Shown piece by piece: positions 6,746 through 58,753 of a stretch of DNA of 64,000 nt; position 1 is the first letter of the stretch, and each line of letters opens with the position of its first letter. Both the position numbers and the translations under genes were made by a program. The stretch comes from Alphaproteobacteria bacterium (lineage in GTDB: Bacteria; Pseudomonadota; Alphaproteobacteria; RF32; CAG-239), in the NCBI GenBank assembly GCA_017935485.1, contig JAGBHO010000016.1, forward strand, positions 5,882 through 69,881, given 5' to 3'. Below the pieces are notes generated by a model. That model searched no databases. It was given only the letters and a program-made list of their open reading frames with translations, and was not told the origin of the DNA.

Positions 6746-6887
6746 AATCTATAATTATTTTTATAATAGTGGCTAATTAACTGTTCCGTTATACCCGATT
6801 CCAGTATTTTTGTCAATATCTTTTATTTCGGAAAATGCAATTTTTCTAAAAAAATATCCGATATTGCAATTAATACCGGATATTTTT

Positions 6888-42544: not shown

Positions 42545-42576
42545 AAAAAAAAATCTCTCCGAAGAGAGATTTTTTT
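42545..42576 (-). terminator. displaced native terminator of tRNA-Leu
   Basis: AAAAAAAATCTCTC-CGAA-GAGAGATTTTTT directly abutting the left att core. Confidence 0.75.
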
Positions 42577-42723
42577 GGTGCACCAAAGTTGATGAATTGT
42601 TGAACTCGATTGTTGATGAAACAAGAAAAATAAATGAATGGCAATAATTAAAATATAATAACTTGCGGAGAATAATCATCATATTCTCCGCAAATTTTGC
42701 GTAGTTTATATTTGTGCTCTATA

Positions 42724-43122
42724 TTAATTGTGTGTATCTTTTTTTTCTTGTGCTTCAAGAGCCTCTCTTAAATTAGTAGCTTCCCTTAAATATTCCATAT
42801 ATTCATCACAAACATAGCTTAGTGTTTCTAGAAATGACGTTGGCTTATAAACAAGATTATCTCTCAATTCCAAAAACAGATAATATTCTGATTTTATCTT
42901 CACCGTCATTTCAGAAAATTCATTATCTCGTGAACGGACTAAAATATCTGTATAAAAAGGACCATAACCATCATCATCAACAAAAAAACGAGCCATTCTA
43001 TTACAATCATCCCATAATTCCAATAATTCATCACCTATTAAAGAGGTTGGAGCATTATTAATTTTATCAACCATATCGTTTATTTTTGCTTCAAATTCTT
43101 CTTGAGTTTTAATTTCAGACAT
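42724..43122 (-). CDS. acidic hypothetical protein
   Basis: AGGAG RBS, 132 aa; hairpin TTGCGGAGAATA...TATTCTCCGCAA downstream. Confidence 0.7.
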   Translation of the reverse strand: MSEIKTQEEFEAKINDMVDKINNAPTSLIGDELLELWDDCNRMARFFVDDDGYGPFYTDILVRSRDNEFSEMTVKIKSEYYLFLELRDNLVYKPTSFLETLSYVCDEYMEYLREATNLREALEAQEKKDTHN

Positions 43123-43323
43123 ATTTTTTCTCCTAATAAATAGTGTTATTTTATGTTTTGTATATTACATTATTTTAAGAGTATTTGCAAAAATAAAATC
43201 AAAAAAAATGATGCTTTTTTATAAAAATTTGTAATTTTTTTACGAATTTTAAATAAAAGTATTGATTTTTTTGCTTTTTATTTCTATATTTTGATTACAA
43301 ACAACAACTGCCGGAGCAAAAAA

Positions 43324-44604
43324 ATGGCTAAAGTAAATTTATTAAGAGTTAAATTTGCAAATATCTTGTCGTTTAAAGATGAACAGGAAATATTTTTTAC
43401 AGCGGAATCTAAATATAGCAATACCCCGACATCTTATATTAGAAGAGTTAATGCTATTGGAGATGATTTGATTACTCCTGTTACTGCATTTTATGGAGCC
43501 AATGCTTCCGGAAAGAGCAATATTGTTAAAGTGTTTAATGATATTGTCTTGCCTTTGTTAGGAAAAACAGATAGTAAACCATCATTTGAATTTTATAAGC
43601 CATTTTTATTAGATGACGAATCTGCATCAAGACCATCATCTATAGAAATAGACTTCTGTCTTGATGATATTAGATATATTTTATCATTTAGCTTTGATAA
43701 AACAGGAATACTGACAGAAAACTTAACAGAATATCAGAATAAAAATAAAAAAGTCATTTATGATAGAGTTGAAAGCAATATTTACAAACCATACAAAGAA
43801 ATTATATCAAAATTTGATATTAAATATATAGAAGATTCTTTAGGCAAAAGACAGGATTTACTTGTTCTTGATATTTTGGATACAAGAGGAATTTCTTATA
43901 TTCATAATATTTTTGAGGCCTTAAAAGATATTTGTAAGGTTACTTTTATAAATATCTTAGAAACAATGTTTAATATGGATAGCTTGGCAGAAAAGATTTA
44001 TCAGGACAAATCCTTGCATAAGAAAGTTGTTGAGTTAATTAAATATGCAGATTTGGGAATTACAGATATTAAAGTTGAAGAAGAAAAAGATTCATCTGCA
44101 CTACCTTTTACTACCTCTCCAACCGGAAAACATTATAAAATTAACTTTGAACATATTGGGGTAAACAATAAAAAGTATGAATTACCTATTTCTTCAGAAA
44201 GCTGGGGAACTGGGCAGTTTGCAAAATACTTGGTTATGTTTGTTCCAATTTTAGTTGGTGGTGGAATTTATATTATTGATGAGCTTGAAGAAAAGTTACA
44301 TCCGATGATGCTGGCTAAAATTGTTGAGATGTTTAATAACCCCAATATTAATATTGGTGGGGCACAGCTTATTTTTACCACTCATAATACTTCCATCCTT
44401 AAATCAAATATTCTCAAGAGAGATGAAATTTGGTTTGTTGAAAAGAATGAAGAAGGATGCTCTGAGGTTTATCCTCTAACTGAATTTAAGGCTATCAGAG
44501 AAGGCTTTAATTATGAAAAAGGCTATTTAGAGGGCAGATTCGGAGCAATTCCATATTTGGGAGATATTAATGAATTAGCTAATATTTTGGAAGCAAAGGA
44601 ATAG
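43324..44604 (+). CDS. RloA-like / AAA_21 ATPase
   Basis: FYGANASGKSN, ESWGT signature, IIDELEEKLHP, QLIFTTH, RDEIWFVEK, YLEGRFGAIP. Confidence 0.88.
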   Translation: MAKVNLLRVKFANILSFKDEQEIFFTAESKYSNTPTSYIRRVNAIGDDLITPVTAFYGANASGKSNIVKVFNDIVLPLLGKTDSKPSFEFYKPFLLDDESASRPSSIEIDFCLDDIRYILSFSFDKTGILTENLTEYQNKNKKVIYDRVESNIYKPYKEIISKFDIKYIEDSLGKRQDLLVLDILDTRGISYIHNIFEALKDICKVTFINILETMFNMDSLAEKIYQDKSLHKKVVELIKYADLGITDIKVEEEKDSSALPFTTSPTGKHYKINFEHIGVNNKKYELPISSESWGTGQFAKYLVMFVPILVGGGIYIIDELEEKLHPMMLAKIVEMFNNPNINIGGAQLIFTTHNTSILKSNILKRDEIWFVEKNEEGCSEVYPLTEFKAIREGFNYEKGYLEGRFGAIPYLGDINELANILEAKE

Positions 44605-44607
44605 CTA

Positions 44608-45264
44608 ATGGTTAGTTTAGATAGAAAAAATAGGCACAATAGAAAAGAAAGAAGTGCTGCCAAAATGGTTATTTTTACCGAAGGTGATGTAACTGAACCT
44701 CAATATTTAACTGATTGGATTAGAAATTTTGCTGCTAAAAATGGTGTAAATCATATTAAAGCTATGACTAAATTTGAAATTGTGGCTTCAAAATATGAAT
44801 CAGAACCCTTAAAAATTGTTGAAAATTTAATTGAAGCAAAGAATCCAGCAAAAAATTATTTAGATACTTTTTATGCTGTGTTTGATGAAGATGATAGAAG
44901 CATAGGAGGGAAAGATAAAGAGAATTTTGACAAGGCTTTTGAGGAAGCAAAAGACAATAATATCAAAGTTATTTGTTCCAATCGGTCTGTTGAATTATGG
45001 GCTTTGATGCATTTTTCAGATAAAACTCCAACCACAAAAAATGATTTGGAAAAAGAATTAAAAACATATCTTCCTCAATACAATGCAAAAACTAACAAAA
45101 AGTTTGATATAGCTTTGATGCTGGTTGATAATAATGAGGATAAAGCCATAGTAAGAGCTAAAAGGTTGAGAAAAAACAACTCCCAATTAGGTGATTGGAG
45201 AATAAGACCATCTACCAATTTTGATGAATTAATTGAAGCAATGAGAGATTTTGTTAGGAGGTAA
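44608..45264 (+). CDS. RloB-like (TOPRIM-fold) protein
   Basis: IFTEGDVTEPQYL, AVFDED, SNRSVELWALMHF, PSTNF; 3 bp downstream of the ATPase. Confidence 0.85.
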   Translation: MVSLDRKNRHNRKERSAAKMVIFTEGDVTEPQYLTDWIRNFAAKNGVNHIKAMTKFEIVASKYESEPLKIVENLIEAKNPAKNYLDTFYAVFDEDDRSIGGKDKENFDKAFEEAKDNNIKVICSNRSVELWALMHFSDKTPTTKNDLEKELKTYLPQYNAKTNKKFDIALMLVDNNEDKAIVRAKRLRKNNSQLGDWRIRPSTNFDELIEAMRDFVRR

Positions 45265-45285
45265 TAGGCTAACAACAACAGCCAT

Positions 45286-46887
45286 CTATAGCACAAAAGA
45301 AAATTCCTCAACTTTATTTAAAAACTCTGCAACATCATTAGGTGTAAGAATTTGGCAAGTTTTATGATAAGAATAATCTATTTTGTTAGTTTTTTCAAAA
45401 TCGTCGTATTTTCCTTTTTCTTGTTCTTTTAAGGTGGATGTAAATATAATTTGATTTGGAAGAGTATTAAATTTATCTATTACTTCTTTCTCTTTTGGTG
45501 TTGATAATTCACCATCTCTAAAAGCATCCATAACAATAGGAAAATTATGATTTAAAACTTTAGCTAAAGCATATAATTTTGACAAATAAAATTCTGCAGC
45601 TTCGCTGCCGGAATATACTTCGTTTTTAATGGTAAATAGCTGGTCAAATATTAGTTTTCCATCAATATCAATTTCCTTATAGAATTTATTCATCTCAGAT
45701 AATATTTTATTTAAAATCTCTCTTTTTGAGGAACTGTTTCCTTCCTGCTTAAGTTTAGCTGAGGATATAATATTTTTATAATTAGCAATGTTTTTATCGA
45801 TTTCTTCAATTCTTGCATCAACATCACTAACACTTACAAGCTCGGATTTATAAAGCAATAAATTTTCTAAACTTACATCTTCTTCTTGAAGTAAGACATT
45901 TAGTTCACTTTGCTTTTTTTTCAATTCAATATCTAATTTTATAATTTCTTCTTTATTTGTATCAATTCTAGCCTCAATAGATGCTAAAATATTTTTTCTT
46001 ATTTCTGCATCAGATGCATCAAAACTGATATCATTTTTCTTATTAAGATACCCAATATGACTAGAATTACAATCTAAACAAACAACACTACCTTCTGAAA
46101 AACTACGATTTAATGAACCAAGCTCTTCTAATAAACTTTCATTTTTAAGTTTTTTATTATAACATCTATTACGTTCTTTTTTTAATTCAATGATTTCATT
46201 TTTCTTGTTTTCTAGTTGAGAAATTTTTTTCAATAAAGCTTCCCTATCTTGAGTATAGCTGGCAGTTCTTATTGCAGGTATGTCTTTTTTTAAAATCTTA
46301 TTTTGTGTTATTAAAAGCTTTTTTTCTTCATTTAAAATATTTATTTTTTCTTTTAGCTTATCTTGGTCAATTTCTGATGGTTTATAACCACATCCCATAT
46401 ATGAATAAATCATATTTATGAAATCGTCCTTATTACAGTATGAGCTATTAAATATTTTGGAAGTATCTCGACCATCTTGTCCAACAAAAAATAACTGAAT
46501 GAATAAATCTAGTTCAGCTAATTTCTCTTTATTATCTTTAAAAATGATAGGAAGTTTGTATATATTTTTATCAAAAAATCTTTTAAAGTCTGAAACACTA
46601 TCATAAATATTAAAACTTTTACCTCTTTTAACAATAAATGTTTTATCCTTTCTACAAATAGAGAAGTTGTCATCATCAAGCTCTATATCTGCAATAAAAT
46701 AATAATTTTTATATTCAAATCCACTTGGAAAAATAGGTTCGTTACCTAAAACATAATATAATCCTTGAGCAACAATTGTTTTACCTTTATTATTATCATC
46801 ACTGAAAATGATATTTAATTTTGGTTCTAATTGCTTTTCAATATAAGCTTCTTTTTTGTTTCCTATGTATAATTTTTTAAATATCAT
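45286..46887 (-). CDS. SMC/Rad50-like ABC ATPase (Lamassu LmuB-like)
   Basis: SDDNNKGKT Walker A, FVGQD Q-loop, coiled coils with CLDC hook, SGSE signature, PIVMDAFRDGEL, QIIFTST. Confidence 0.75.
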   Translation of the reverse strand: MIFKKLYIGNKKEAYIEKQLEPKLNIIFSDDNNKGKTIVAQGLYYVLGNEPIFPSGFEYKNYYFIADIELDDDNFSICRKDKTFIVKRGKSFNIYDSVSDFKRFFDKNIYKLPIIFKDNKEKLAELDLFIQLFFVGQDGRDTSKIFNSSYCNKDDFINMIYSYMGCGYKPSEIDQDKLKEKINILNEEKKLLITQNKILKKDIPAIRTASYTQDREALLKKISQLENKKNEIIELKKERNRCYNKKLKNESLLEELGSLNRSFSEGSVVCLDCNSSHIGYLNKKNDISFDASDAEIRKNILASIEARIDTNKEEIIKLDIELKKKQSELNVLLQEEDVSLENLLLYKSELVSVSDVDARIEEIDKNIANYKNIISSAKLKQEGNSSSKREILNKILSEMNKFYKEIDIDGKLIFDQLFTIKNEVYSGSEAAEFYLSKLYALAKVLNHNFPIVMDAFRDGELSTPKEKEVIDKFNTLPNQIIFTSTLKEQEKGKYDDFEKTNKIDYSYHKTCQILTPNDVAEFLNKVEEFSFVL

Positions 46888-47918
46888 TCTTCCATCCAAT
46901 CTTTGACAAGAGCAATAAAAAACATTGTTGAGTTAAATGTTAAATGAGGTATTGCTTCAATTTTTTGCCTATCAATTAGGTCAAATATTTCCACTACACT
47001 GAAATTTTTATTATTAATAACTGCAGAATGAATTTCTTCAAACAAAATCCAATATGAAGATGCATTGGCTTTATCAAATAACATTCTAAAAATTTCATTC
47101 TTGCATTCTTCAATTATTTCTTTTCTATCACTTAACTCTCTTCCGTCTAAAACAGGCGAAAAACAATTTGGAGTTCCTTCTGCAATATTACTTCTGTGTA
47201 GAAGTCTGCTTAAAACTAACATTTTTATTTCATTTGATGTCACGTGACGATTATGTTTATCAAACTCTCTCATAATATTTATTGTTATGTTTTCCTTGTT
47301 TTCACATTTTTTTCCCGATTGATGCTTTTTAATTTCATCAAATATTTTATCTAAATATTCATTGTTAATTATAGTAGAAGATTTAATTTTTATTATTGAT
47401 TTAATATAATCTGACTTGTTTTTATTTTCACCTACAAATGTTACTTTTAATAAAAAATCATCTATGCTTTCGTTTGTTATTCTTGTTTCATCAATATATT
47501 TTTTTTCTATGCAAGCCTTTTTCAATCCTTCGATGATTGATTTTTTGGATTCTTCATTAAAATTTTCAATATTAAATGTTTTTATTGTATTATCTTTTAA
47601 TATTGTTGAGGCAAACCCTCCTGTAAATAAAATATAATTTACAAAATTTTTATTAAAATCTGATTGATAATTTTTATAGAGAGTTACTAAATATTCACCA
47701 ATTTGCTTTCCTCTTAAATTTTTACTTGCTTTTGATTGAATATCCCAAGCTCTATCTCCCATTCGATGAATACCAGTTACATCATTAAAAAAATCAATTA
47801 CAAAATAGAATATTTGGTCAGAATCTTTATGAAAATTCATAAGATAAAGTAATGCCTTAGTTTCCCCTTCAGAAGCAGATTGATTCGTTTTTTCTGTTGA
47901 TGTAACCACATATACCAT
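46884..47918 (-). CDS. Cap4-like PD-(D/E)xK nuclease effector (Lamassu LmuA-like)
   Basis: ASEGETKALLYL...DFFNDV...DIQSK; ATGA overlap with the SMC-like gene. Confidence 0.65.
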   Translation of the reverse strand: MVYVVTSTEKTNQSASEGETKALLYLMNFHKDSDQIFYFVIDFFNDVTGIHRMGDRAWDIQSKASKNLRGKQIGEYLVTLYKNYQSDFNKNFVNYILFTGGFASTILKDNTIKTFNIENFNEESKKSIIEGLKKACIEKKYIDETRITNESIDDFLLKVTFVGENKNKSDYIKSIIKIKSSTIINNEYLDKIFDEIKKHQSGKKCENKENITINIMREFDKHNRHVTSNEIKMLVLSRLLHRSNIAEGTPNCFSPVLDGRELSDRKEIIEECKNEIFRMLFDKANASSYWILFEEIHSAVINNKNFSVVEIFDLIDRQKIEAIPHLTFNSTMFFIALVKDWMEE

Positions 47919-48049
47919 TTATATACTCATATTATTTGTAATAACTACAAACGAGATTAAGCATAAAATAAAACAAATACAAGTAGAAAATGTTACTTTG
48001 ATATACTTATATGTTTTATTTCTTATATACTATAACATCAGAGCATACC

Positions 48050-48141
48050 CTATTTTTACATTTACAAAAGTGTAAAATCTAAATTATTTTGCTTGACGAT
48101 TTTACAGCTGTAAAATATATTCTTAAATATAGATTTTACAT
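48050..48141. promoter_or_regulatory. putative res site overlapping the resolvase promoter
   Basis: Repeated TTTACA/TGTAAA half-sites; perfect ATTTTACAGCTGTAAAAT (48099-48116) between TTGACG and TATATT. Confidence 0.7.
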
Positions 48142-48149
48142 CAAGGGGT

Positions 48150-48713
48150 ATGGCAATGATATTTAATTATATACGAGTCTCTTCAATTGAGCAAAGCACA
48201 GAACGACAACTAAAAGATGTCACTTGTGACAGAGTGTATGAAGAAAAAATTAGTGGTAAAGATACCAATCGTCCTCAGTTACAAGCAATGCTGGCAAATA
48301 TTAGAGCAAACGATATCATTAACATACACGAGATGAGTCGCTTGGCTCGTAACACTCGTGATTTATTAAATCTTGTAGAAGAAATAACCTCAAAAGGAGC
48401 TACTATCATTTTTCATAAAGAAAACCTGACTTTTAAGGGAAATGAAAAGCAAGACCCCTATCAAAAAATGATGATGGTTATGTTAGGAGCTGTTGCAGAG
48501 CTTGAAAGGGCTATTCTATTAGAAAGACAAAGAGAGGGTATTGCAATAGCAAAAGCTAAAGGGAAATACAAAGGTGGAAAAAACAAACTAAGTAGTGAGC
48601 AAATCACTGAATTAAATAATATGCATAATCAAGGAATGCCAATTTCTTGGATTGCAAAACAATTTAAAATCACTAGACCTACAGTTTACAGTTATTTGAA
48701 AAAAGATGGTTAA
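48150..48713 (+). CDS. resolvase-type small serine recombinase
   Basis: YIRVSSIEQSTERQ, EKISGKDTNRPQL, SRLARN, ERQREGI, C-terminal HTH. Confidence 0.93.
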   Translation: MAMIFNYIRVSSIEQSTERQLKDVTCDRVYEEKISGKDTNRPQLQAMLANIRANDIINIHEMSRLARNTRDLLNLVEEITSKGATIIFHKENLTFKGNEKQDPYQKMMMVMLGAVAELERAILLERQREGIAIAKAKGKYKGGKNKLSSEQITELNNMHNQGMPISWIAKQFKITRPTVYSYLKKDG

Positions 48714-48725
48714 TGCACTATTTCT

Positions 48726-49322
48726 CTAATCTTTATGTTGATTTATAAATCTTCTAATAGTGCTTCTATCAACCTTAAACATTCTGGCTATTTGGGTTTT
48801 AGGGATATTTTGTTCAGCAAGTTGTAGGATTCGTTCTTTGTTTTTCTTTAAATCATTGAATGCACTTTTACGACCAAAAGGACGACCAAGGTGCTTTCCT
48901 TCTGCCTTAACTCTTTTTAGAGCTTCTTTTGTTCTTTCAGAGATGAGCTGCCTTTCTATCTCTGCAGCTAAACTGAAAGCAAAAGCAAGAACTTTACTCT
49001 GGATATCTGAACCAAGACGATAGTTCTCTTTTAATGTCCATATTTGACACTCTCTTTCTAAACATTCTTTTAATATTCCCATAACTTCTAATAGATTTCT
49101 ACCAAGACGACTTAGTTCTGATGCAATTAAAACATCTCCTTTTTTTAATTTTTTGAGTAATTTGCCGAGTTTTCTTTCATTTAGAGGTTTTCTTGAAGAT
49201 ATTTTTTCTTCTACCCACTTATTAATTTCTATATCATTTGCTTCACAATATGTTGAAATTGCTAATTTTTGGTTTTCTAAGACCTGAGTTTGTGTGCTAA
49301 CCCTTATATATCCATATATCAT
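48726..49322 (-). CDS. Mpi-family DNA invertase (serine recombinase)
   Basis: MIYGYIRVST, SELSRLGRNL, YRLGSDIQSKVLAFAFSLAAEIERQLISERTKEAL resembling Bacteroides Mpi. Confidence 0.85.
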   Translation of the reverse strand: MIYGYIRVSTQTQVLENQKLAISTYCEANDIEINKWVEEKISSRKPLNERKLGKLLKKLKKGDVLIASELSRLGRNLLEVMGILKECLERECQIWTLKENYRLGSDIQSKVLAFAFSLAAEIERQLISERTKEALKRVKAEGKHLGRPFGRKSAFNDLKKNKERILQLAEQNIPKTQIARMFKVDRSTIRRFINQHKD

Positions 49323-49386
49323 ATTCAATCCTTTTAAAATATTTATCAGATTGAACAAAAATACATAAAAAAATAAGCGAGATAAT

Positions 49387-49544
49387 TAATTCACCAATTA
49401 ATTATCTCGCTTTTGATATCATACAAATTAATCTAAAATAATCAATTAGAATCTTATATTATGCTTTGAAAATAAGCATATTCTAGCAAAATTAATGTTT
49501 TAAATGAATATTCCCTAAAATAGGGTGGGTTAATTGGTGAATTA
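49387..49544. repeat. 15-bp inverted repeat pair (candidate invertible segment)
   Basis: TAATTCACCAATTAA at 49387-49401 and TTAATTGGTGAATTA at 49530-49544. Confidence 0.7.
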
Positions 49545-49549
49545 GCCCA

Positions 49550-50635
49550 TTGTTAGAATGTATAAATAATATATCACTATCAGAAAAAGAAATACCTTTA
49601 AATACTCAAGTAAAGGGATGGAATTTACATACTCAAATTTACAATTTAGAAGATTATAAAGAAGATATAACAGCATCAAATGATGAAAATATTGACATTT
49701 TAGAGCAAGATATTGAAAAACTTAGTCCTTTTTTATTAAAAATCTTGCTTCAAGATAAGACAACTGGAAAATACATTCGTTTTGCTTGTGATGAATATGC
49801 CAAATATGGAGAAGCCTATACTGCTGAAAAAGAAATACTTCCGGAACTTATTACCAAAGATAACACTAGAATAATCCAACCAAGAATATCAAAAACCAAA
49901 GATGAACAAATAAACAGAACTCGTAAATCGGCTGAGGTTTTTACTCCTTCTTGGATTTGTAATGAAATGAACAACCATTGTGATGAAGAATGGTTTGGTT
50001 ATTCCAATGTATTTAATACCCCAAATGGTCACGATTGGATACCAACAACAGAACCTATACAATTTGCAGAAGATAAGAAAAGCAAAAAAGAAGGTTGGAT
50101 GAAATATGTTGATTCAAAAAGATTAGAAATAACCTGTGGTGAAGCACCTTATCTTGTTTCCAGATATGACACAACTACCGGAGAGTTTTTGCCAATAGAG
50201 AAAAGAATTGGTCTTTTAGATAGAAAACTTCGCATAGTTAATGAAAATACAACAAATGAAACAGATTGGTTTAATTGGGCAAAACGAGCATATGAAGCCA
50301 CTTATGGCTATGAATACCAAGGAGATAACTTGCTTTTAGCAAGAGAAAATCTTCTTTGGACATTTATTGATAATTTTAAATTCAAACACAAAAAACAACC
50401 AACACTAACACAAATCAAACAAATAGCCAATGTAATTGCGTGGAACATTTGGCAGATGGATGGGCTTACAGATACAGCTCCTTTTAGCGATTCCAATGAA
50501 GATGACAGTCAATTAGAGCTTTTTAGCGATTTACCAAAAGTTTTAGAACCAATGCTTTGCAAAATAAAGGATTGGCGAAGCGATAAAGTTTTTTATTTCC
50601 AAGAAATAAAGAAAGGAAACAAAAATGAAATTTGA
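49550..50635 (+). CDS. R-M methyltransferase N-terminal half (SAM-binding part)
   Basis: AEVFTPSW, LEITCGEAPYL, YGYEYQGDNLLLAR, NIWQMDGL; TTG start uncertain. Confidence 0.78.
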   Translation: MLECINNISLSEKEIPLNTQVKGWNLHTQIYNLEDYKEDITASNDENIDILEQDIEKLSPFLLKILLQDKTTGKYIRFACDEYAKYGEAYTAEKEILPELITKDNTRIIQPRISKTKDEQINRTRKSAEVFTPSWICNEMNNHCDEEWFGYSNVFNTPNGHDWIPTTEPIQFAEDKKSKKEGWMKYVDSKRLEITCGEAPYLVSRYDTTTGEFLPIEKRIGLLDRKLRIVNENTTNETDWFNWAKRAYEATYGYEYQGDNLLLARENLLWTFIDNFKFKHKKQPTLTQIKQIANVIAWNIWQMDGLTDTAPFSDSNEDDSQLELFSDLPKVLEPMLCKIKDWRSDKVFYFQEIKKGNKNEI

Positions 50636-51638
50636 TGTAATTATAGGAAATCCACCATATCAGGAAACCAGAGAAAATACTTCTGATGGCCCAGTTTATG
50701 ATAGATATATGGATGAAGCATATAAATTAGCGAAAATTGTTGAGTTAATTACACCAGCAAGATTCTTATTTAATGCAGGACGAACTCATAAACATTGGAA
50801 CAAAAAAATGTTAAATGATGAATATTTTAATGTATTACGATATGAACCTGATAGTAAAAAAATATTTTCCAATACAGATATAAAAGGTGGAGTAATCATA
50901 TCTATAAGAAATAGCAAAAAGAAAGTTGGAAAAATTGAAGTTTTTACTTCTTATCAAAAATTAAACTCTATTTTACATAAAATGAAAAGAGAATCTTACG
51001 ACAGTCTATCTTCTATAATGTATCCTTATTCGACATATTCTCTTAATGAGGAATTATTTTGTGATTTTCCTGAACTTAAAAACATTCTCAGTAATTATAA
51101 AATAATAACAACCAATATATTTGACTTATTATCTATGCTTTTTGTTGATGAACCTAAAAATAAAGAAGAATTTTGCTGTTTATTAGGACGTCAAAACAAT
51201 CAAAGAGTTTTTAAGTATATAAATAAAAAATATATAAATACAGGAAATAATTATACTAAATATAAAGTAATTATTCCTAAATCTAATGGTTCAGGAACAT
51301 TTGGAGAAAATTTATCATCACCATTAATAGCTGAACCTTTTATAGGATATACTCAATCATTTTTAGGTATAGGTGCTTTAAATACAATATATGAAGCACA
51401 ATCACTAATCAAATATATTTCATCAAAATTTACACGAGCTTTGCTTGGTATATTAAAAAGCACTCAAGATAATCCTCCTGAAAAATGGAAATATGTCCCC
51501 CTTCAAGATTTTACTGAAAATTCTGATATTGATTGGTCTAAATCTATACACGAAATAGATTTACAGCTCTATAAAAAATATGGGTTATCAGAAGAAGAAA
51601 TTCAATTCATAGAAACAAAAGTTAAACCTATGGAGTAA
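50625..51638 (+). CDS. Eco57I-type N6-adenine MTase catalytic part plus target recognition domain
   Basis: MKFDVIIGNPPYQ, ITPARF, DIKGG; C-terminal VPLQDF...LYKKYGLS. Confidence 0.85.
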   Translation: MKFDVIIGNPPYQETRENTSDGPVYDRYMDEAYKLAKIVELITPARFLFNAGRTHKHWNKKMLNDEYFNVLRYEPDSKKIFSNTDIKGGVIISIRNSKKKVGKIEVFTSYQKLNSILHKMKRESYDSLSSIMYPYSTYSLNEELFCDFPELKNILSNYKIITTNIFDLLSMLFVDEPKNKEEFCCLLGRQNNQRVFKYINKKYINTGNNYTKYKVIIPKSNGSGTFGENLSSPLIAEPFIGYTQSFLGIGALNTIYEAQSLIKYISSKFTRALLGILKSTQDNPPEKWKYVPLQDFTENSDIDWSKSIHEIDLQLYKKYGLSEEEIQFIETKVKPME

Positions 51639-51643
51639 GAACT

Positions 51644-54600
51644 ATGGCTAAAATCAACATTAAGACAAGTAAAAAAGTAATACCTATGTGTTATGCCTAT
51701 ACTACTCCTCAAATAGCTAGCCACGAAGGTTGGACTAAGATAGGCTTTACAGAACAAGATGTTGAAACTCGTGTTAGGCAACAAACCCAAACTGCTGATA
51801 TAGAGTATAAAATAGAGTGGAAAGCCAATGCTATATATGATGATGGTTCAGGAGATATTTTTCACGATACTGATTTTCATTGTTATTTGAAAAAAATTGG
51901 AATTGAGAGAAAAATAGGAACAGAATGGTTTCATATCCTACCTCAAACATCCAAGCAACGATTCGATGAATTTAGGGCAAATAGAGGAATTGCTCAAACA
52001 GATGTTGTAATAGAATATAAATTAAGAACAGAACAGCAAAAAGCTGTGCAGCAAGCAAAATCATATTTTCAACAATATGCAGATGATGAGCCTGAGTTTT
52101 TATGGAATGCAAAACCTCGATTTGGTAAAACTCTTTCAGCATATGATTTATGTAAACAATTAGATGCTAAAACAGTTCTAATAGTTACACATCGTCCAGC
52201 TATTGCAACCTCGTGGTATAGTGATTATGAAAAATTTTTTGGAACTCAATCTGGTTACTTTTTTGTTAGTCAGGTTGATACACTAAAAAACAAACCTTGT
52301 GTTGTAAAAAGAGAAAATTTACCACCCTCAGCAAGAAAATATATAGAATTTATATCATTACAAGACCTTAAAGGTGCAATAGATTTTGGTGGAAAATATG
52401 ACAAATTAAAGCATATTGCCCAATTAAAATGGGATTTATTGATTATTGATGAGTCTCACGAAGGTATTGATACATATAGGGCAGATATTGCTTTTGATAA
52501 TATAAAAAGGAAATATACTCTTCATTTATCAGGAACTCCTTTTAGAGCTTTGGCTAATTCAAAATTTGAAGAAAAAGCTGTATATAACTGGACATATGCT
52601 GATGAACAAAAGGCAAAAAAAGAATGGGATGAAACAAAAGAAGAAGAAAATCCTTATTCTACTCTACCTCAATTAAATCTTTATACTTATCAAATGTCTG
52701 AAATCATTAGAGACAAGCTACAAAAAGGTGCTGATTTTGATGATGATGGAGAAACAGAAAGCTATGCATTTGATTTAAATGAGTTCTTCATCACTAATTC
52801 AAATGGCTCATTCAAATATGATGCTGATGTAGATAAATTTTTAGAAGCATTAACCACTCAAGCAAAATTTCCATTTTCAACAGAAGAACTTAGAAATGAA
52901 TTAAGACATACTTTTTGGTTATTAAATCGTGTTGATAGTGCCAAAGCATTAGCAAAGAAATTGAAAGAACATCCAATATTTAGGGAATATGAAATAGTCC
53001 TAGTTGCTGGTGATGGTAATTTAGATGAGGATACAGAAAATCAAAAGTCCTTTGATAAAGTTGTAAAGGCAATCAAAGAAAATGACAAGACAATTACAAT
53101 TTCTGTTGGACAATTAACAACAGGAGTTACTGTGCCGGAATGGACTGCTGTATTAATGCTAAGCAATGTAAAAAGTCCTGCTCTATATATGCAAGCTGCT
53201 TTTAGAGCTCAGAATCCTTGTTTATTTAAATATGGACAACTGCAATTTCGTAAAGAAAATGCTTATGTATTTGATTTTGACCCTGCTCGAACATTAGTTG
53301 TTTTTGAACAATTTGCTAATGATTTAAATACAACAACTTCTGCAGGTAAAGGAAACATAGATGAACGCAAGCAAAACATCAGGGAGCTAATCAACTTCTT
53401 TCCAGTGTATGGTGAAGATGATGAAGGAGAAATGATAACCCTTGATGCCGAAAAAATTCTTACCATTCCTCGTAAAATTTATGCAAAAGAAGTTGTTCGT
53501 AAGGGATTTATGTGTAATTTTTTATTCCAAAATATCAGTAATATTTTTAATGCACCCAAAGAAGTTATTGATATAATACAAAATTTCACTCCTCAAAAAG
53601 AGCCTATCGGTGTTACATACGAAACAAAAGATAAACTCAATATTAATACTGAGGGAGAAATCGAATTGTCATCGGAAATGGTTATTGGTAAAGCTGCTGA
53701 TATATTTGGAGAAAAATTATATAATAATATTGAAGATGAACTAGTTAAAACAGTTGAAACCATAAAAGATGAAATTCAAAGTAAAAAAGAAGTCGATGAA
53801 ATTAAAGAAGATTTGAAAGAAAAATTTCATATAGGAACTTCGGCAATGATTGAAATTGCTAAAAAAGAATATGGAAAGGATTTAAGTAAATCAGCTCAAA
53901 AGAAATTGGTTCAAACATTAAATGCTGATGCCGAAAGGACTTTTGAAAAACAATTTGGTTCCTATAAAATTGATATTGAAAGACTTGAACGAGACCGCAA
54001 AATAGAAATAAAACAAGCTAAAAATGAAAAAGAAATAGCTGCTATTAACCAAAAATTTGATACAACTAAATCTGTTGTTGAAAATAATCTAGCTGAAACA
54101 TTAAAGAATTCAATTAACCAAGTTGTTCACGAAGCTGGTAAGACCATTGTAGAAATAACAGAAACAGACATTAAACAAAGAGAAAAGCAAAGTATTGAAG
54201 AAGGTGTTCGAGACCATTTAAGAGGTTTTTCAAGAACAATACCATCGTTTTTAATGGCTTATGGAGACGAAAATACAACATTAGAGAATTTTGATACAAT
54301 TATTCCAAATGAAGTATTTAAGGAAGTTACCAGCATAACTCTTGATGAATTTAGATTTTTAAGAGATGGTGGGGATTATGTAGATGATAAAACAGGTGAA
54401 ACAAAACATTATGCTGGAAATTTATTTGACCCAGTAGTCTTTAATGATTCTGTAAAAGAATTTCTAAATTTAAGAACTAAATTAAGTAATTATTTTGATG
54501 AAGAACAGATAGAAGATATATTTGATTATATTCCACCGCAAAAAACAAACCAAATCTATACTCCTAAAAAAGTTGTAAAAGAAATGGTTGATAATTTAGA

Positions 54601-54937
54601 AAAAGAATGTCCTGAATGTTTTGAAAATTCAGATAGAACTTTTATTGATTTATATATGAAATCAGGTCTCTACATTACAGAAATTGTAAAAAGACTATTT
54701 AATAGCAGTAATTTGAAACAAAAATATCCAAATGAACAAGAAAGATTAGAACATATTTTTGCAAATCAAGTTTATGGTTTAGCTCCAACAGAAATTATCT
54801 ATCGTATTGCAACTGCTTATATTTTAGGTTTTGATGAGAAAATGAGTATTGATAAACATAATTTAAGATTATTTGACACTTTACCTTCTGTTCAAAAAGG
54901 AACTCTGGAAAAAGATTTAGATAAGGTTTTTAAGTAA
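51644..54937 (+). CDS. restriction subunit: GIY-YIG/T5orf172-like nuclease, SF2 helicase and partial MTase
   Basis: YAY..WTKIGFT..EWF; NAKPRFGKT, IIDESHEG, LSGTP, QAAFRAQ; C-terminal QIYTPK, DLYMKSG. Confidence 0.83.
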   Translation: MAKINIKTSKKVIPMCYAYTTPQIASHEGWTKIGFTEQDVETRVRQQTQTADIEYKIEWKANAIYDDGSGDIFHDTDFHCYLKKIGIERKIGTEWFHILPQTSKQRFDEFRANRGIAQTDVVIEYKLRTEQQKAVQQAKSYFQQYADDEPEFLWNAKPRFGKTLSAYDLCKQLDAKTVLIVTHRPAIATSWYSDYEKFFGTQSGYFFVSQVDTLKNKPCVVKRENLPPSARKYIEFISLQDLKGAIDFGGKYDKLKHIAQLKWDLLIIDESHEGIDTYRADIAFDNIKRKYTLHLSGTPFRALANSKFEEKAVYNWTYADEQKAKKEWDETKEEENPYSTLPQLNLYTYQMSEIIRDKLQKGADFDDDGETESYAFDLNEFFITNSNGSFKYDADVDKFLEALTTQAKFPFSTEELRNELRHTFWLLNRVDSAKALAKKLKEHPIFREYEIVLVAGDGNLDEDTENQKSFDKVVKAIKENDKTITISVGQLTTGVTVPEWTAVLMLSNVKSPALYMQAAFRAQNPCLFKYGQLQFRKENAYVFDFDPARTLVVFEQFANDLNTTTSAGKGNIDERKQNIRELINFFPVYGEDDEGEMITLDAEKILTIPRKIYAKEVVRKGFMCNFLFQNISNIFNAPKEVIDIIQNFTPQKEPIGVTYETKDKLNINTEGEIELSSEMVIGKAADIFGEKLYNNIEDELVKTVETIKDEIQSKKEVDEIKEDLKEKFHIGTSAMIEIAKKEYGKDLSKSAQKKLVQTLNADAERTFEKQFGSYKIDIERLERDRKIEIKQAKNEKEIAAINQKFDTTKSVVENNLAETLKNSINQVVHEAGKTIVEITETDIKQREKQSIEEGVRDHLRGFSRTIPSFLMAYGDENTTLENFDTIIPNEVFKEVTSITLDEFRFLRDGGDYVDDKTGETKHYAGNLFDPVVFNDSVKEFLNLRTKLSNYFDEEQIEDIFDYIPPQKTNQIYTPKKVVKEMVDNLEKECPECFENSDRTFIDLYMKSGLYITEIVKRLFNSSNLKQKYPNEQERLEHIFANQVYGLAPTEIIYRIATAYILGFDEKMSIDKHNLRLFDTLPSVQKGTLEKDLDKVFK

Positions 54938-54949
54938 AAAGGAACTATT

Positions 54950-55285
54950 ATGCTATTTGAAGTATTGGGAGAAGATTTACGCAAACAGCTGTCTCATATA
55001 ACTAAAAATTTAAGAGGTGGTAGAAAATCTACTCTTTATATTGAGATATATGAAGATAACATTATTTTCGTGTATAGAAACATTGAAATGCCAATAAGTG
55101 TCTTAAATCATATAAGTGAAGAACATAAATTAAGGGCAATATACACTATTTCGGATTATGCATTACTACATAAATTAATTAAAAAATTTAAGAATTGTGA
55201 TAGCTACTTACTAGATTTCTATCCAAATTCTATTAGAATTCAGATAGGTAGTGTAAAATTTGAAGTATCTGCAAATTTACAGTAA
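54950..55285 (+). CDS. hypothetical protein
   Basis: AAGGA RBS; last gene of the R-M operon, before the terminator. Confidence 0.65.
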   Translation: MLFEVLGEDLRKQLSHITKNLRGGRKSTLYIEIYEDNIIFVYRNIEMPISVLNHISEEHKLRAIYTISDYALLHKLIKKFKNCDSYLLDFYPNSIRIQIGSVKFEVSANLQ

Positions 55286-55289
55286 CATA

Positions 55290-55321
55290 AAAGCCTCAAG
55301 GTTGTTTAATCTTGAGGCTTT
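55290..55321. terminator. bidirectional intrinsic terminator
   Basis: AAAGCCTCAAG...CTTGAGGCTTT. Confidence 0.75.
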
Positions 55322-55345
55322 AATTTTATCAATTAAACAAATTCT

Positions 55346-55972
55346 CTAATCATTAAATTCAGTCATTAAATTTTCTACATTGAATCCGATTGATTCTCTT
55401 ATGATATCTTTAATACTCAAATTATTGATTTTTGTTTTAGCATTTATATCAGCACCATAATAAATTAGTAATGAGGATAGGTATATCATATCATTATACC
55501 CAGCAATCATTAAAGGTGTAACATTAAACTCATTACCAATATTGGGGTTTGCTTGATTTTCTAAAAGAAAAATAGAAATTTCTTTTAGGTTTCGTCTAAT
55601 ACTTTGATATAAAATTGTTTCTTTATTTTTATCTCTCCAATTTATATTAAAACCTAAATTTAGCATTTTCCTTAATACAATGATTTTTTGAAATTGTCGG
55701 AGATGTGGATTACAAACAACAGCAGATGCTAAAGAATATCCATTTCTCAAATTTTGATTTAACATTGCTTTGTTTAGCATTTGAAGAAGTAAATAATATG
55801 ATTTACTTGTTAAAAAAATGTTGAATATGTTATTTTCTCTTTCTTTATAAAAATAAGATAAATCATCTACATCAATTAACTCTAATTCATCTTCTAAATA
55901 TCCAATATCTTTTCTATCTTCCCTTACTGCATTATCTATAATTCTTCTTGTATAATCTTTACCTTCATTCAT
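55346..55972 (-). CDS. ankyrin repeat protein
   Basis: GFNINWRD..ETILY, LLENQANPN, TPLMIA, LLIYYGADINAK. Confidence 0.82.
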   Translation of the reverse strand: MNEGKDYTRRIIDNAVREDRKDIGYLEDELELIDVDDLSYFYKERENNIFNIFLTSKSYYLLLQMLNKAMLNQNLRNGYSLASAVVCNPHLRQFQKIIVLRKMLNLGFNINWRDKNKETILYQSIRRNLKEISIFLLENQANPNIGNEFNVTPLMIAGYNDMIYLSSLLIYYGADINAKTKINNLSIKDIIRESIGFNVENLMTEFND

Positions 55973-55974
55973 TT

Positions 55975-56247
55975 TTACTCCTTAATAATAGAATTTTTTA
56001 ATATACCTAGCAGTTTATTTTGCCAATTTGACATCTGTTTTTCCTGATTTAATTTAAGATATAAGGTTAAAATAGATGCTATACTTGGATATTTGTTTTG
56101 GTAAACTAATGTTCCAAGGTAATTACTGCATTTATTTAAATATTTGCAGCTAAATTCACGAAAACTATTTATTTTTCCTTCTTTGATTAAATTATTTGCT
56201 ACATCTATGACTAAATTAAGTTGGTTATTCATTGTTGATTTATTCAT
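55975..56247 (-). CDS. small HTH-like protein (DUF6626-like)
   Basis: INSFREFSCKYLNKCSNYL resembles the S..EFS..WLG.S.SY pattern; AAGGA RBS. Confidence 0.55.
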   Translation of the reverse strand: MNKSTMNNQLNLVIDVANNLIKEGKINSFREFSCKYLNKCSNYLGTLVYQNKYPSIASILTLYLKLNQEKQMSNWQNKLLGILKNSIIKE

Positions 56248-56289
56248 TTATTTCCTTATTTGTGATAAATGTATTTATCATATTCTTAA

Positions 56290-56814
56290 GCCAAAACTCA
56301 CTACGTTTCGTTTTAGCTAGAAACTTCGCAATCACAGATTGCTTGTTTTATTTTTTTTAATTTATTTTTTTAGATTAATTAATGTATTTCAGTATTTTCG
56401 TTAGATTTGCTCTTTTTACCCAACTTACGAGGGTAAAAAAATATAGCATTTTCGTTGAGTTTGCTTTCTTGTTTTGGTTATAGTAAATTTCTTTACAACT
56501 CATACACCGCCAATATGAGCCTTCCACCTGCTTTTTCGGTTGGCACATTGTAAAATCCAAACAAGAACTAAATTCTACAATGCCGAGGTTGTCAAGGAGC
56601 ACAGACAGAGCCTCATTTTTCTAACTGACATCATCAGCCGTGTCCTATTTATATTCCGCCGACCGTCTTTGGAGGAGTTACTTTGCGGTGCTTACACCAA
56701 TGGGCAAGTCTTCATAGGTTTTCAGTTTGTTCCCTGCTTGAGGGTGCTCATAAAAAAGCCTGTTTCCCCGTTTTTGTGGCACAGATTATGAAATCTGTGA
56801 TTGGTATGTCATTT
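56290..56814 (-). ncRNA. candidate structured ncRNA or long leader
   Basis: GC-richer stretch inside the AT-rich island; several hairpins need G-U pairs available only on the minus strand; promoter TTGCAT-N18-TACTAT at 56850-56821. Confidence 0.5.
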
Positions 56815-57078
56815 ATTCTTATAGTATCATATTTGATTTTCTATATGCAAAATTATTCTGCTAAATTTATTTATTAAAAATGCCAGAAAAATTTTTATTT
56901 TTTCAAATCAGAATAACACACTGTTTTTACTTAATAAAAAAAATTTGCAGAAATTTGACTTTTAAAAACTTTTAATATATTATCTCGTCATTCAATGAGG
57001 TGGTTTTATCCTCTAACCCTTAAATTACATATCCATAAAATAGCAATTATAGTTTCAACTTTCATTTGAAGGTGTGCT

Positions 57079-57195
57079 ATGGATTGCCTTAATTATCAAA
57101 ATAAAAACTCAAAAAAAATAACTGAAGTTGGGGATGATGTTTTCCAACTATTGTTGATATTATTAGAAATTGAAATGCATAAACAGGTAAATTAG
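57079..57195 (+). CDS. 38-aa ORF upstream of the integrase (candidate directionality factor)
   Basis: GAAGGTG RBS; MDCLNYQNKNSKKITEVGDDVFQLLLILLEIEMHKQVN; its stop codon overlaps the integrase RBS (TAGGAG). Confidence 0.5.
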   Translation: MDCLNYQNKNSKKITEVGDDVFQLLLILLEIEMHKQVN

Positions 57196-57199
57196 GAGA

Positions 57200-58753
57200 A
57201 TGGATATGAAAGCTGTTGTTCTAGCTCGTGTATCCACCGAAATGCAAGAGGATGGATTCTCTTTAGATGCTCAACTGGATAGATTACGAAACTATTGCTC
57301 AATCAAAGGTCTGGAAATAGCAAAAGAATTTACTTTTGTGGAAAGTTCTTTCCACGGAAAAAGGACTAAATTTTATGAAGCAGTCAATTACATCAAACAT
57401 CAGACCAAATTAACAGCTCTTGTAGTTGATACTGTTGATAGGCTTCAACGAACTTTTAATGAATTCCCAATGCTTTTAGAACTTGTGAAGAAAGGAAAAC
57501 TTGCTCTTCATTTCTTCAAAGAAGGACTTGTGATTGATAAGAACTTTAAGAGTTCTGATTTGGCAATGTGGCAAATGCAAATTTTATCTGCAAATATGTT
57601 TGTTAATTCAACCAGAGATAATGTAAGAAGGTCTGAGGAAAGAATGCTTAAAGAAGGTTTACTTCCCGGTCCTGCACCTATTGGTTATTTAAATGTGAGA
57701 GATGAAAAGGGAAAGAAAACAATTATTATTGACCCTGAAAGAGGACCTATAATAAAAAAATTGTTTGAGGAATACTCAACTGGGCTATTCTCAATGGATG
57801 AATTGGTTAAAAAATCTAAGCAATGGGGATTAAAAAATCGTAAGAGTGGAAACCCAATGACAAAATCACAATTTGCAAGTGTTTTGCAAAATCCATTCTA
57901 TTATGGTGTGATGTTTTACAATAAAACTTTTTTTCCTCATATCTATGAGAAGCTTATTTCTAAAGAGCTTTTTGACAAATGCACAGAAATAAGAACAGGA
58001 AAATTCAAAAGAACTTCAAAACATACTAAAGAACCCTATATTTTTAGAGGATTAGTCCGTTGCAAATATTGTGGTTGCTTACTTTCTCCATACACTAAAA
58101 AAGGTAAGTATGTTTATTTAAGACATACAGAACTGAAAGATTGTGAGCATTGCACCAATGTTAGTGAGCAAATTATCTTGAACGAAGTTCATAAATCTCT
58201 TTTATCCATTAGTTTTGATGATGATTTAAAGGCTAGCTTAGCAACTCGTTTGAAAAAACAATATGAGATAACTCACGGAAGAACAAGTTATCAATTAGAA
58301 AAAAGCAAAAATGAATTGTCTGATGTTGAACAAAAACAGAAGAAACTTTTAGACTTGTTAATTGCAGAAACTATATCTGCTGAAGTATATCGTAGTAAAA
58401 ATGCTGAATATGAAATGCAAAAGATTGACTTACAAAATAAAATTCAATCATTGCAAGCTCCTGATACTTCTGTGGAGAGAGCTATTGATAAGGTATTGAA
58501 TTTTAGTCAAAATTCTTATGAGATTTTCAAAAGTTCGCAAATTGAAGAAAAAAGACGAATTTTAAATATTGTTTTTGCGAACTTTTTTATGGAAGGGAAA
58601 AATCCAGTTATTTCAATGAGAAAAAACTTCAACCTCCTATCAAATTTAGGAGGTTGTCAAGATTGGTGCCCTGGAGAAGACTCGAACTTCCACTGGCTGA
58701 GCCAACATGCACCTGAAGCATGCGCGTCTACCAATTCCGCCACCAGGGCATAA
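57200..58753 (+). CDS. large serine recombinase (integrase)
   Basis: ARVSTEMQ, DRLQR, PAPIGY, LQNPFYYG recombinase domain, CKYCG zinc ribbon, coiled coil; 3' end reads antisense through tRNA-Leu. Confidence 0.93.
   Translation: MDMKAVVLARVSTEMQEDGFSLDAQLDRLRNYCSIKGLEIAKEFTFVESSFHGKRTKFYEAVNYIKHQTKLTALVVDTVDRLQRTFNEFPMLLELVKKGKLALHFFKEGLVIDKNFKSSDLAMWQMQILSANMFVNSTRDNVRRSEERMLKEGLLPGPAPIGYLNVRDEKGKKTIIIDPERGPIIKKLFEEYSTGLFSMDELVKKSKQWGLKNRKSGNPMTKSQFASVLQNPFYYGVMFYNKTFFPHIYEKLISKELFDKCTEIRTGKFKRTSKHTKEPYIFRGLVRCKYCGCLLSPYTKKGKYVYLRHTELKDCEHCTNVSEQIILNEVHKSLLSISFDDDLKASLATRLKKQYEITHGRTSYQLEKSKNELSDVEQKQKKLLDLLIAETISAEVYRSKNAEYEMQKIDLQNKIQSLQAPDTSVERAIDKVLNFSQNSYEIFKSSQIEEKRRILNIVFANFFMEGKNPVISMRKNFNLLSNLGGCQDWCPGEDSNFHWLSQHAPEACASTNSATRA
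58630..58657 (-). terminator. island-supplied terminator for tRNA-Leu
   Basis: CAACCTCCTA...TAGGAGGTTG hairpin followed by AAGTTTTTT on the minus strand, just after the CCA end. Confidence 0.6.
58664..58749 (-). tRNA. tRNA-Leu(CAG)
   Basis: GCCCTGG acceptor stem, CATGC-TTCAGGT-GCATG anticodon arm, long variable arm, TTCGAGT T-loop, encoded CCA; promoter TTGACT-N17-TATAAG upstream. Confidence 0.97.

Follow-up and report, generated by a model that had tools for sequence, protein, structure and literature searches.

An att site inside a large serine integrase gene: integration at the CCA end of tRNA-Leu exchanges the C-terminal tail of the enzyme

A genomic island in the window (the whole stretch of 64,000 nucleotides analysed here) carries an integrase gene that contains the att site of the island, and integration exchanges the C-terminus of the encoded integrase. 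An earlier note, made from the DNA letters alone, had described this att-in-gene arrangement and tail swap; the observation was confirmed, and every sequence statement of that note holds. As to what the swap does, we give a probability of about one half to the following reading: the native (attP-side) tail would serve the enzyme produced from the free element, the integrated-state tail would be unselected, and the swap would tune the amount or stability of the enzyme, not the direction of the reaction.

Insertion site and boundaries of the island

The sequence itself and ARAGORN both place the island at the 3′ (CCA) end of a tRNA-Leu(CAG) gene. This gene (58664–58749, minus strand), the sole tRNA gene in the window, is intact with its CCA end encoded, and a comparison by eye found its sequence to be that of the tRNA at an empty site in another genome (G001, described below). 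Two copies of an att core, TTGGTGC, were read from the sequence. One lies at the tail-side junction, between the host flank and the island (42575–42581), and the other at the integrase-side junction (58663–58669), where positions 58664–58669 are the antisense of the encoded tRNA 3′ end, GCACCA. The island body between them (42582–58662), as delimited by the empty-site comparison, has a GC content of about 28%, against about 46% in the flanks.

The empty site was found in two genomes of the same genus, G001 and G010, in which the left flank (96% and 88% identical to the window, respectively), the core and the tRNA follow one another without interruption. The host hairpin that lies at 42545–42576 in the window passes, in both of these genomes, via TTGGTGC into the tRNA and then into the right flank. 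Because of these two sites, the insertion can be given as exactly 16,088 bp (one core copy counted), and the crossover can be assigned to the 7-bp core. In a third genome, G002, a different island occupies the same site and has a homologous in-frame tail. Related islands were also present in contigs of the runs X2, X5 and X10, from three other studies (mouse, chicken and bovine gut); their similarity to the window ends at 42570–42576, and the flanks beyond are unrelated. A further locus in the same genus (L004, G008:C31:1-1678) contains repeated decayed copies of the flank hairpin together with a few bases from the start of the tRNA, beyond which the DNA is unrelated. Such repeats look like scars at the same insertion site.

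The island thus has the features of a tRNA-targeting genomic island, namely insertion at the 3′ end of a tRNA gene, regeneration of that gene and a direct repeat at the far end. Compared with such islands in general, it is unusual in using a serine recombinase and in having a minimal repeat, only 7 bp being identical between the two att copies. Serine integrases use short att sites in which the crossover spans 2 bp and is asymmetric, and their excision depends on a directionality factor; in the characterised enzymes, a palindromic central dinucleotide would give no polarity. When the attP arms were reconstructed (window positions 42575–42586 and 58652–58669), the best symmetry comprised 12 of 20 positions and was centred on GC. 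Despite this palindromic centre, the orientation of insertion was constant in every copy examined.

Two C-termini of one gene

In the integrated state, the integrase ORF spans 57200–58753 (plus strand, 517 aa), although the spacing to an AGGAG motif makes the ATG at 57206 the likelier start. The ORF reads GAT-TGG-TGC at 58661–58669, that is, D488-W489-C490, so that the frame crosses the core as D-W-C, just as the earlier note had read it. The frame then continues antisense through the entire tRNA-Leu gene, giving a tail of 27 codons, PGEDSNFHWLSQHAPEACASTNSATRA, and a stop (58670–58753, plus strand; stop codon at 58751–58753). If the island ends are joined at the core, the TGG-TGC frame leads into a different tail of 21 codons, TKVDELLNSIVDETRKINEWQ, and a stop (42582–42647, plus strand); the in-frame alternative that had been predicted is therefore real at the sequence level. 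This attP-side tail is fused to the integrase solely in the excised or tandem state. With the core inside the ORF and the exact empty sites in hand, the location of the att site within the integrase gene is borne out, and from this location it follows that integration necessarily swaps the C-terminal tail.

Among the homologous proteins, the integrated-state tails vary with the tRNA and the host flank, and therefore no specific integrated-state sequence appears to be selected. It also follows that, if the integrase gene is transcribed to its stop codon, the tRNA would be transcribed in antisense. Natural fusions of the integrase with the attP-side tail were found in P0031, P0052, L054, L060 and L061. 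The native tails end in ...EWQ, ...GWK or ...EKY, and inspection of them found no conserved alanine-rich C-terminal tag of the kind associated with mycobacteriophage BPs.

The integrase and its predicted fold

The Pfam domains identify the integrase as a large serine recombinase, not a tyrosine integrase; the earlier note had not named the class. The N-terminal catalytic domain is represented by PF00239 (Resolvase; E = 4.1e-16, residues 5–153), and the N-terminus has an ARVST motif, which we take to be the site of the nucleophile serine. PF07508 (Recombinase) matched with E = 3.9e-12. The Recombinase domain and the zinc ribbon with an inserted coiled coil can be recognised from PF07508 together with the AlphaFold2 model, which has long helices at residues 341–419, PF13408 (Zn_ribbon_recom) itself being sub-threshold (22.8 bits; cut-off, 25.3 bits). 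The model also matches full-length serine-integrase structures (9y66, 9dxh, Bxb1 9iu2, PhiC31 9rah and 4kis; E values from 1e-18 to 5e-12), among which is a Listeria LSR-DNA complex. The best NCBIfam matches are CcrB and XisF. Membership in either equivalog was rejected, the scores being 87.1 bits against a cut-off of 900 bits and 81.1 bits against a cut-off of 375 bits, respectively.

The two C-termini were then compared in AlphaFold2 models. L060, a natural attP-form enzyme of 509 aa, has a mean pLDDT of 81.5 and a confident fold up to about residue 481, and its native tail is modelled as a single helix (residues 485–508, pLDDT 42–50). The integrated form of the window has a mean pLDDT of 79.7, and its residues 485–517 are below 50 and mostly coil. 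Both tails are thus low-confidence segments (pLDDT of about 33–50), and for this reason docking of the native tail onto the body is unsupported. In these models, the crossover falls just past the confidently folded body. Since the confident fold (to about residue 480) is wholly upstream of the core, the catalytic, recombinase, zinc-ribbon and coiled-coil parts are predicted to be retained in both isoforms.

These models bear on the function proposed in the earlier note, which had the state-dependent isoforms control directionality or stability. Read as a directionality switch, the native tail would be needed for attP × attB recombination or would block excision, and the antisense tail would permit or favour attL × attR recombination; the gene would record the integration state and thereby bias the reaction. 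The tail directly follows the zinc-ribbon/coiled-coil region according to the fold match, and in large serine recombinases this region governs directionality. The clade-wide architecture and the constraint on the native tail (both described below) also agree with such a switch, and a precedent exists in myxophage Mx8, for which PMC6070905 describes an altered integrase with changed site usage. Nevertheless, we consider the switch unlikely. The structure models give no support for a tail-body contact, and no directionality factor was identified. Moreover, the integrated tails are not conserved among hosts, so that any effect on directionality would need to stem from the loss of the native tail alone.

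The layout among related recombinases

The layout was examined in a set of 121 proteins, consisting of the query and 120 homologs among the matches listed, with identities down to about 39%. A tRNA-antisense C-terminal peptide, marked by a DSN-type signature, is present in 105 of them. This signature is the tRNA T-arm read in antisense, and several different tRNAs are involved. The remaining 16 proteins comprise four with an attP-type tail, four with a stop at most 8 residues from the core and eight that are truncated or chimeric. In six proteins (P0028, P0045, P0054, P0055, P0058 and P0109), the C-terminal half of the integrase is joined to unrelated N-terminal domains (PF01867, PF13707, PF20473 and PF14130); these fusions might have arisen by recombination within the gene, or they might be chimeras of the assembly.

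A second recombinase in the same genome (L012, G000:C45:3925-5391), 36% identical to the first, reads antisense into tRNA-Glu(CTC), and there the CCA antisense lies in another codon phase than at the tRNA-Leu integrase. In three more complete islands of 21–25 kb, the integrase crosses the core into a tRNA-Leu gene (CAG, CAG and GAG), and a homologous tail lies at the far end. The same type of integrase-side junction was found in L063 and in the public record MT837677.1. The latter, the best phage record (72% identity), was considered as a source of the native C-terminus and rejected, being an integrated copy beside tRNA-Leu. The best plasmid match to the integrase has 36.6% identity. These data show that the att-in-gene layout belongs to the recombinase clade as a whole.

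Search for the free form

Among the joints listed in the contigs of four of the 24 public runs considered, all of them available as contigs, neither a circle junction (back-joint) nor an empty site was found, rare forms being invisible in contigs, and the number of attP-type junctions in viral contigs was 0. Integrase/tail junctions were found in 19 metagenome contigs (L050–L068), none of which is a demonstrable circle. Eleven of the 19 are relic or tandem junctions, in which only about 75 integrase codons are joined, via the core, to the tail of an island that lies downstream and is complete; L063 is an example (1246–1564 and 6756–8324). All 11 have one common breakpoint (ILPLVSVGDNV...), which suggests tandem insertion at an occupied site and then deletion, fixed in one human-gut host lineage. 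Other candidates for a circle were rejected: L054 has an internally deleted integrase, L060 is a low-coverage contig of 3.5 kb with host-like genes about 600 bp past the tail, and the other remaining junctions are partial copies at contig ends.

It may be asked at this point whether the site has been assigned wrongly or the island is an immobile relic. The 7-bp repeat would then be coincidental and the crossover elsewhere, or the island would be dead, and the alternative tail would never be made. The two att copies do share merely 7 bp, the circle junction was not observed in contigs, and the arm symmetry is centred on a palindromic GC. However, this reading is largely refuted, and we regard it as very improbable, by the exact empty sites in G001 and G010, the identical boundary within unrelated host flanks in three other studies and the same layout at tRNA-Leu genes of other genomes. 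The integrase ORF is also intact, and all copies examined have the same orientation of insertion.

The attP-side tail as a coding segment

When one genome per species was scanned with a search pattern, 36 loci were obtained. Six of these (L018, L023, L029, L035, L041 and L046) belong to unrelated phyla, and their tails diverge directly after the pattern; they were regarded as chance matches and left out of all counts. The analysis used 35 junctions, including those of the window and G002, of which 33 are unique over 90 bases. All are of the host-flank/tail type except L043, whose upstream part is a frameshifted 3′ remnant of an integrase gene. In 29 of the 35 junctions, the integrase frame remains open over 21 codons or more; for each of the other forward frames, this count is 0 of 35.

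Since six of the eight codons at the start of the tail were dictated by the search pattern (VDELLN), constraint was measured only on tail residues 9–20, which lie 27–62 bp from the core. In 24 unique sequences, the mean pairwise difference per site was 0.256, 0.302 and 0.508 at codon positions 1, 2 and 3, respectively. The pN/pS of these residues was 0.457, as compared with 0.61–1.46 in the other five frames; this value is only moderate and, since the sequences are mutually related, is given without formal significance. Examples found apart from the pattern (G002, P0031, P0052 and the X2/X5 variants) also have the tail, and the X2/X5 differences that were mapped to codons by hand are mostly synonymous third-position changes. 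P0061 and P0095, which belong to a distant branch, are identical at 10 of 18 tail residues, as compared with 48% identity overall. The earlier note had held that a lack of conservation of the attP-side tail in homologous islands would refute its proposal. The tail passed this test: in these comparisons it is conserved, with coding-type constraint.

This constraint has exceptions. A +1 frameshift is present in 6 of the 35 tails, the downstream DNA still being similar, and the length of the native tails ranges from 21 to 33 aa. The idea that tails stay intact where a genome has its cognate integrase (defined by at least 70% identity) was rejected as non-discriminating: in these incomplete MAGs, such an integrase was found in 4 of 10 genomes with an in-frame tail and in 1 of 4 with a frameshifted tail, and another of these four has only a broken fragment of it. 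Separately, one 19-kb contig (L048 and L042) has four successive units of terminator-like hairpin, core and tail, at 8713, 10689, 12316 and 16432. The units are spaced 1.6–4.1 kb apart, three of their tails are frameshifted, and the intervals contain no integrase. Either an array of mini-cassettes without integrases or repeated unequal recombination may explain them.

The tail could also be a neutral by-product. The attP site would simply overlap a dispensable gene end, both tails would be irrelevant, and the conservation would come from constraint on the DNA of the attP arm and from shared ancestry. Several observations accord with this. Both tails are of low confidence and outside the fold, the integrated tails vary freely with the tRNA and the flank, and the native tail varies in length and is frameshifted in the six cases above. 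In addition, the probable attP arm extends over roughly the first nine tail codons. VDELLNS, the best-conserved part, is within about 27 bp of the core, where the half-site of a serine integrase would be expected, and it prolongs the inverted repeat of the arms. We take neutrality to be a serious possibility, though less likely than not. Against it stand the codons at 27–62 bp from the core, where change is biased to third positions and pN/pS is the lowest of the six frames, the distant branch, which keeps 18 tail residues as well as it keeps the body, and the contrast in open frames between the integrase frame and the other forward frames.

Hairpins and terminators around the att cores

The host hairpin at 42545–42576 (minus strand), which lies between an A-run and a T-run, is found directly 3′ of the tRNA in G001 and G010, where it is the native terminator of tRNA-Leu at the empty site. 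The insertion puts 16 kb between this hairpin and the tRNA in the window. Another hairpin follows the stop codon of the attP-side tail: the terminator-like element at 42663–42699 (plus strand), detected by a hairpin scan, has a 12-bp stem and a T-rich tail, its hairpin part being 42663–42693. Four terminator-like sites occur in this 1-kb region, as compared with 0.3 expected from shuffles. The terminator hairpin that the earlier note placed after the tail is therefore present in the window. As a general feature it was rejected, since it was found in only 4 of 43 unique related junctions under a strict perfect-stem rule.

A third hairpin is embedded in the integrase gene itself. The minus-strand fold (58618–58656) has a 10-bp stem (58630–58656) and a T-run (58618–58629); it overlaps integrase codons 474–486 and lies, on the minus strand, directly downstream of the tRNA 3′ end. 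Across 11 distinct integrase 3′ ends, 98.2% of the cells pair, and the pairing falls to 28%–50% when the register is shifted. In two of the 10 pairs, both partners are substituted (A-U to G-C; C-G to G-C), and the covariation score was reached by 0 of 500 shuffles. The paired changes alter integrase residues, N/K/S at one position with G/A at the other. Given that integration moves the tRNA's own terminator 16 kb away, the embedded hairpin is probably a replacement tRNA-Leu terminator brought by the island and kept by compensatory changes. Alternatively, it may act as a DNA-level palindrome.

With this hairpin included, a wider proposal can be framed. This clade of large serine recombinases would have evolved a self-contained att-in-gene module for tRNA CCA ends; the element would record its free or integrated state in the C-terminus and 3′ flank of its recombinase gene, tune the enzyme in this way and have the last integrase codons dual-coded as a tRNA terminator. 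The dual coding would force the paired amino-acid changes (N/K/S with G/A). A possible route of tuning is that head-on transcription of the tRNA gene truncates the int transcripts, whose products would be tagged and degraded. We put this proposal forward tentatively and are rather doubtful of it as a whole.

Proposed function of the tail exchange

The attP site extends over the last 21 codons of the integrase gene, and the crossover falls directly past the confident fold, so that recombination exchanges only a short C-terminal appendage and the 3′ flank of the gene. In the excised or tandem state, the gene ends in the conserved tail (a low-confidence helix in the models) and, in this island, is followed by its own terminator. 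In the integrated state, it ends in the tRNA-antisense peptide, lacks its own terminator and converges on the tRNA gene. On our preferred reading, the native tail would be the selected form, serving the enzyme made from the free element, which performs integration, while the integrated-state tail would be an unselected by-product of read-through. The integrated enzyme would remain catalytically competent, because excision must be carried out by it. The swap would then tune the amount or stability of the enzyme via the new C-terminus, the lost 3′ end and head-on tRNA transcription. Directionality, for which serine integrases rely on the coiled coil and a directionality factor, would not be set by it.

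Comparison with known systems

Att sites inside integrase genes are already documented for tyrosine recombinases (Mx8 and the SSV type). The closest known system is the IntP/IntX pair of Mx8: according to PMC6070905, attP lies within int, and integration yields a recombinant int with a new 3′ end that is not inactivated. The likeness consists in a core inside the int ORF and an altered C-terminus on integration. The Mx8 target is also a tRNA gene. The Mx8 Int is a tyrosine recombinase, whereas the present enzyme is a large serine recombinase without tyrosine chemistry. The exchanged C-terminal portion of Mx8 is much larger; here, unlike in Mx8, the swap is confined to 21 codons past the fold, and the whole clade has this arrangement in common.

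In the SSV-type archaeal integrases, the site is inside the gene and integration disables the integrase, as stated in PMC8371274. These "suicidal" integrases are archaeal tyrosine recombinases whose gene is split and disabled by integration. Here, in contrast, the ORF stays open at 517 aa, and the entire confident fold lies upstream of the core. In mycobacteriophage BPs, attP is located inside the repressor gene (PMC4557955). The present system resembles it in that an attP in a coding gene makes the C-terminus dependent on the integration state. The free-phage form of the BPs repressor reportedly bears a C-terminal degradation tag that integration removes. Unlike in BPs, the gene concerned here is that of the recombinase itself, and the native tails are without an alanine-rich tag.

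Two other comparisons concern the surroundings of the gene. In lambda sib, int is controlled post-transcriptionally by what lies 3′ of it across attP, which is not the same in the free and the integrated state. The likeness is that the two states differ downstream of int; sib acts on RNA alone and leaves the protein as it is, whereas in the present system the protein tail changes along with the 3′ flank. SCC elements target the 3′ end of a conserved gene and also form tandem or relic junctions. The island shares these features with the Ccr/SCC system, but the SCC target is rlmH, while here it is a tRNA CCA end and a single recombinase gene is used. Our full-text literature search found no natural serine-integrase example of the att-in-gene layout and no serine-integrase clade aimed at tRNA CCA ends; literature beyond that searched, or the supplementary att-site tables of serine-integrase surveys, may list one.

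Cargo and spread of the island

The island carries AbiLi/AbiLii (43291–45264), PDC-M22B/A (45286–47918, minus strand), a type II/IIG-like methyltransferase and helicase module (49550–54937), an ankyrin protein (55346–55972) and DUF6626 (55975–56247). Judged from these genes, the cargo is anti-phage defence. Two small serine recombinases of the resolvase/invertase type (48150–48713, plus strand, and 48726–49358, minus strand) lie tail to tail just upstream of the split type II/IIG-like methyltransferase module (49550–51638), a layout that may be phase-variable or invertible.

The X2, X5 and X10 islands retain the AbiL module, the resolvase region and the ankyrin-to-integrase module, while other DNA replaces the PDC-M22 and restriction-modification segments (window 45250–48040 and 48750–55290); in X5, for example, the stretch between 48754 and 55289 is taken up by 4,920 letters of other DNA. 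Related islands thus seem to exchange defence cargo as modules. The holders amount to 20 runs, which belong to 10 studies and include gut metagenomes of mouse, chicken and bovine origin, and none of the runs is recorded as RNA.

Significance

The short, well-defined attP and attB sites at a universal type of target are of interest for genome-integration tools in gut Alphaproteobacteria. For annotation, it should be noted that gene callers systematically over-extend these integrase ORFs through tRNA genes. The dual-coded terminator, if it is one, clearly exemplifies how a protein sequence can be constrained by an RNA or DNA structure. The element spreads anti-phage defence cargo among animal-gut bacteria, and, if the tail swap affects the enzyme, it would provide a simple state-sensing control that acts on the recombinase itself.
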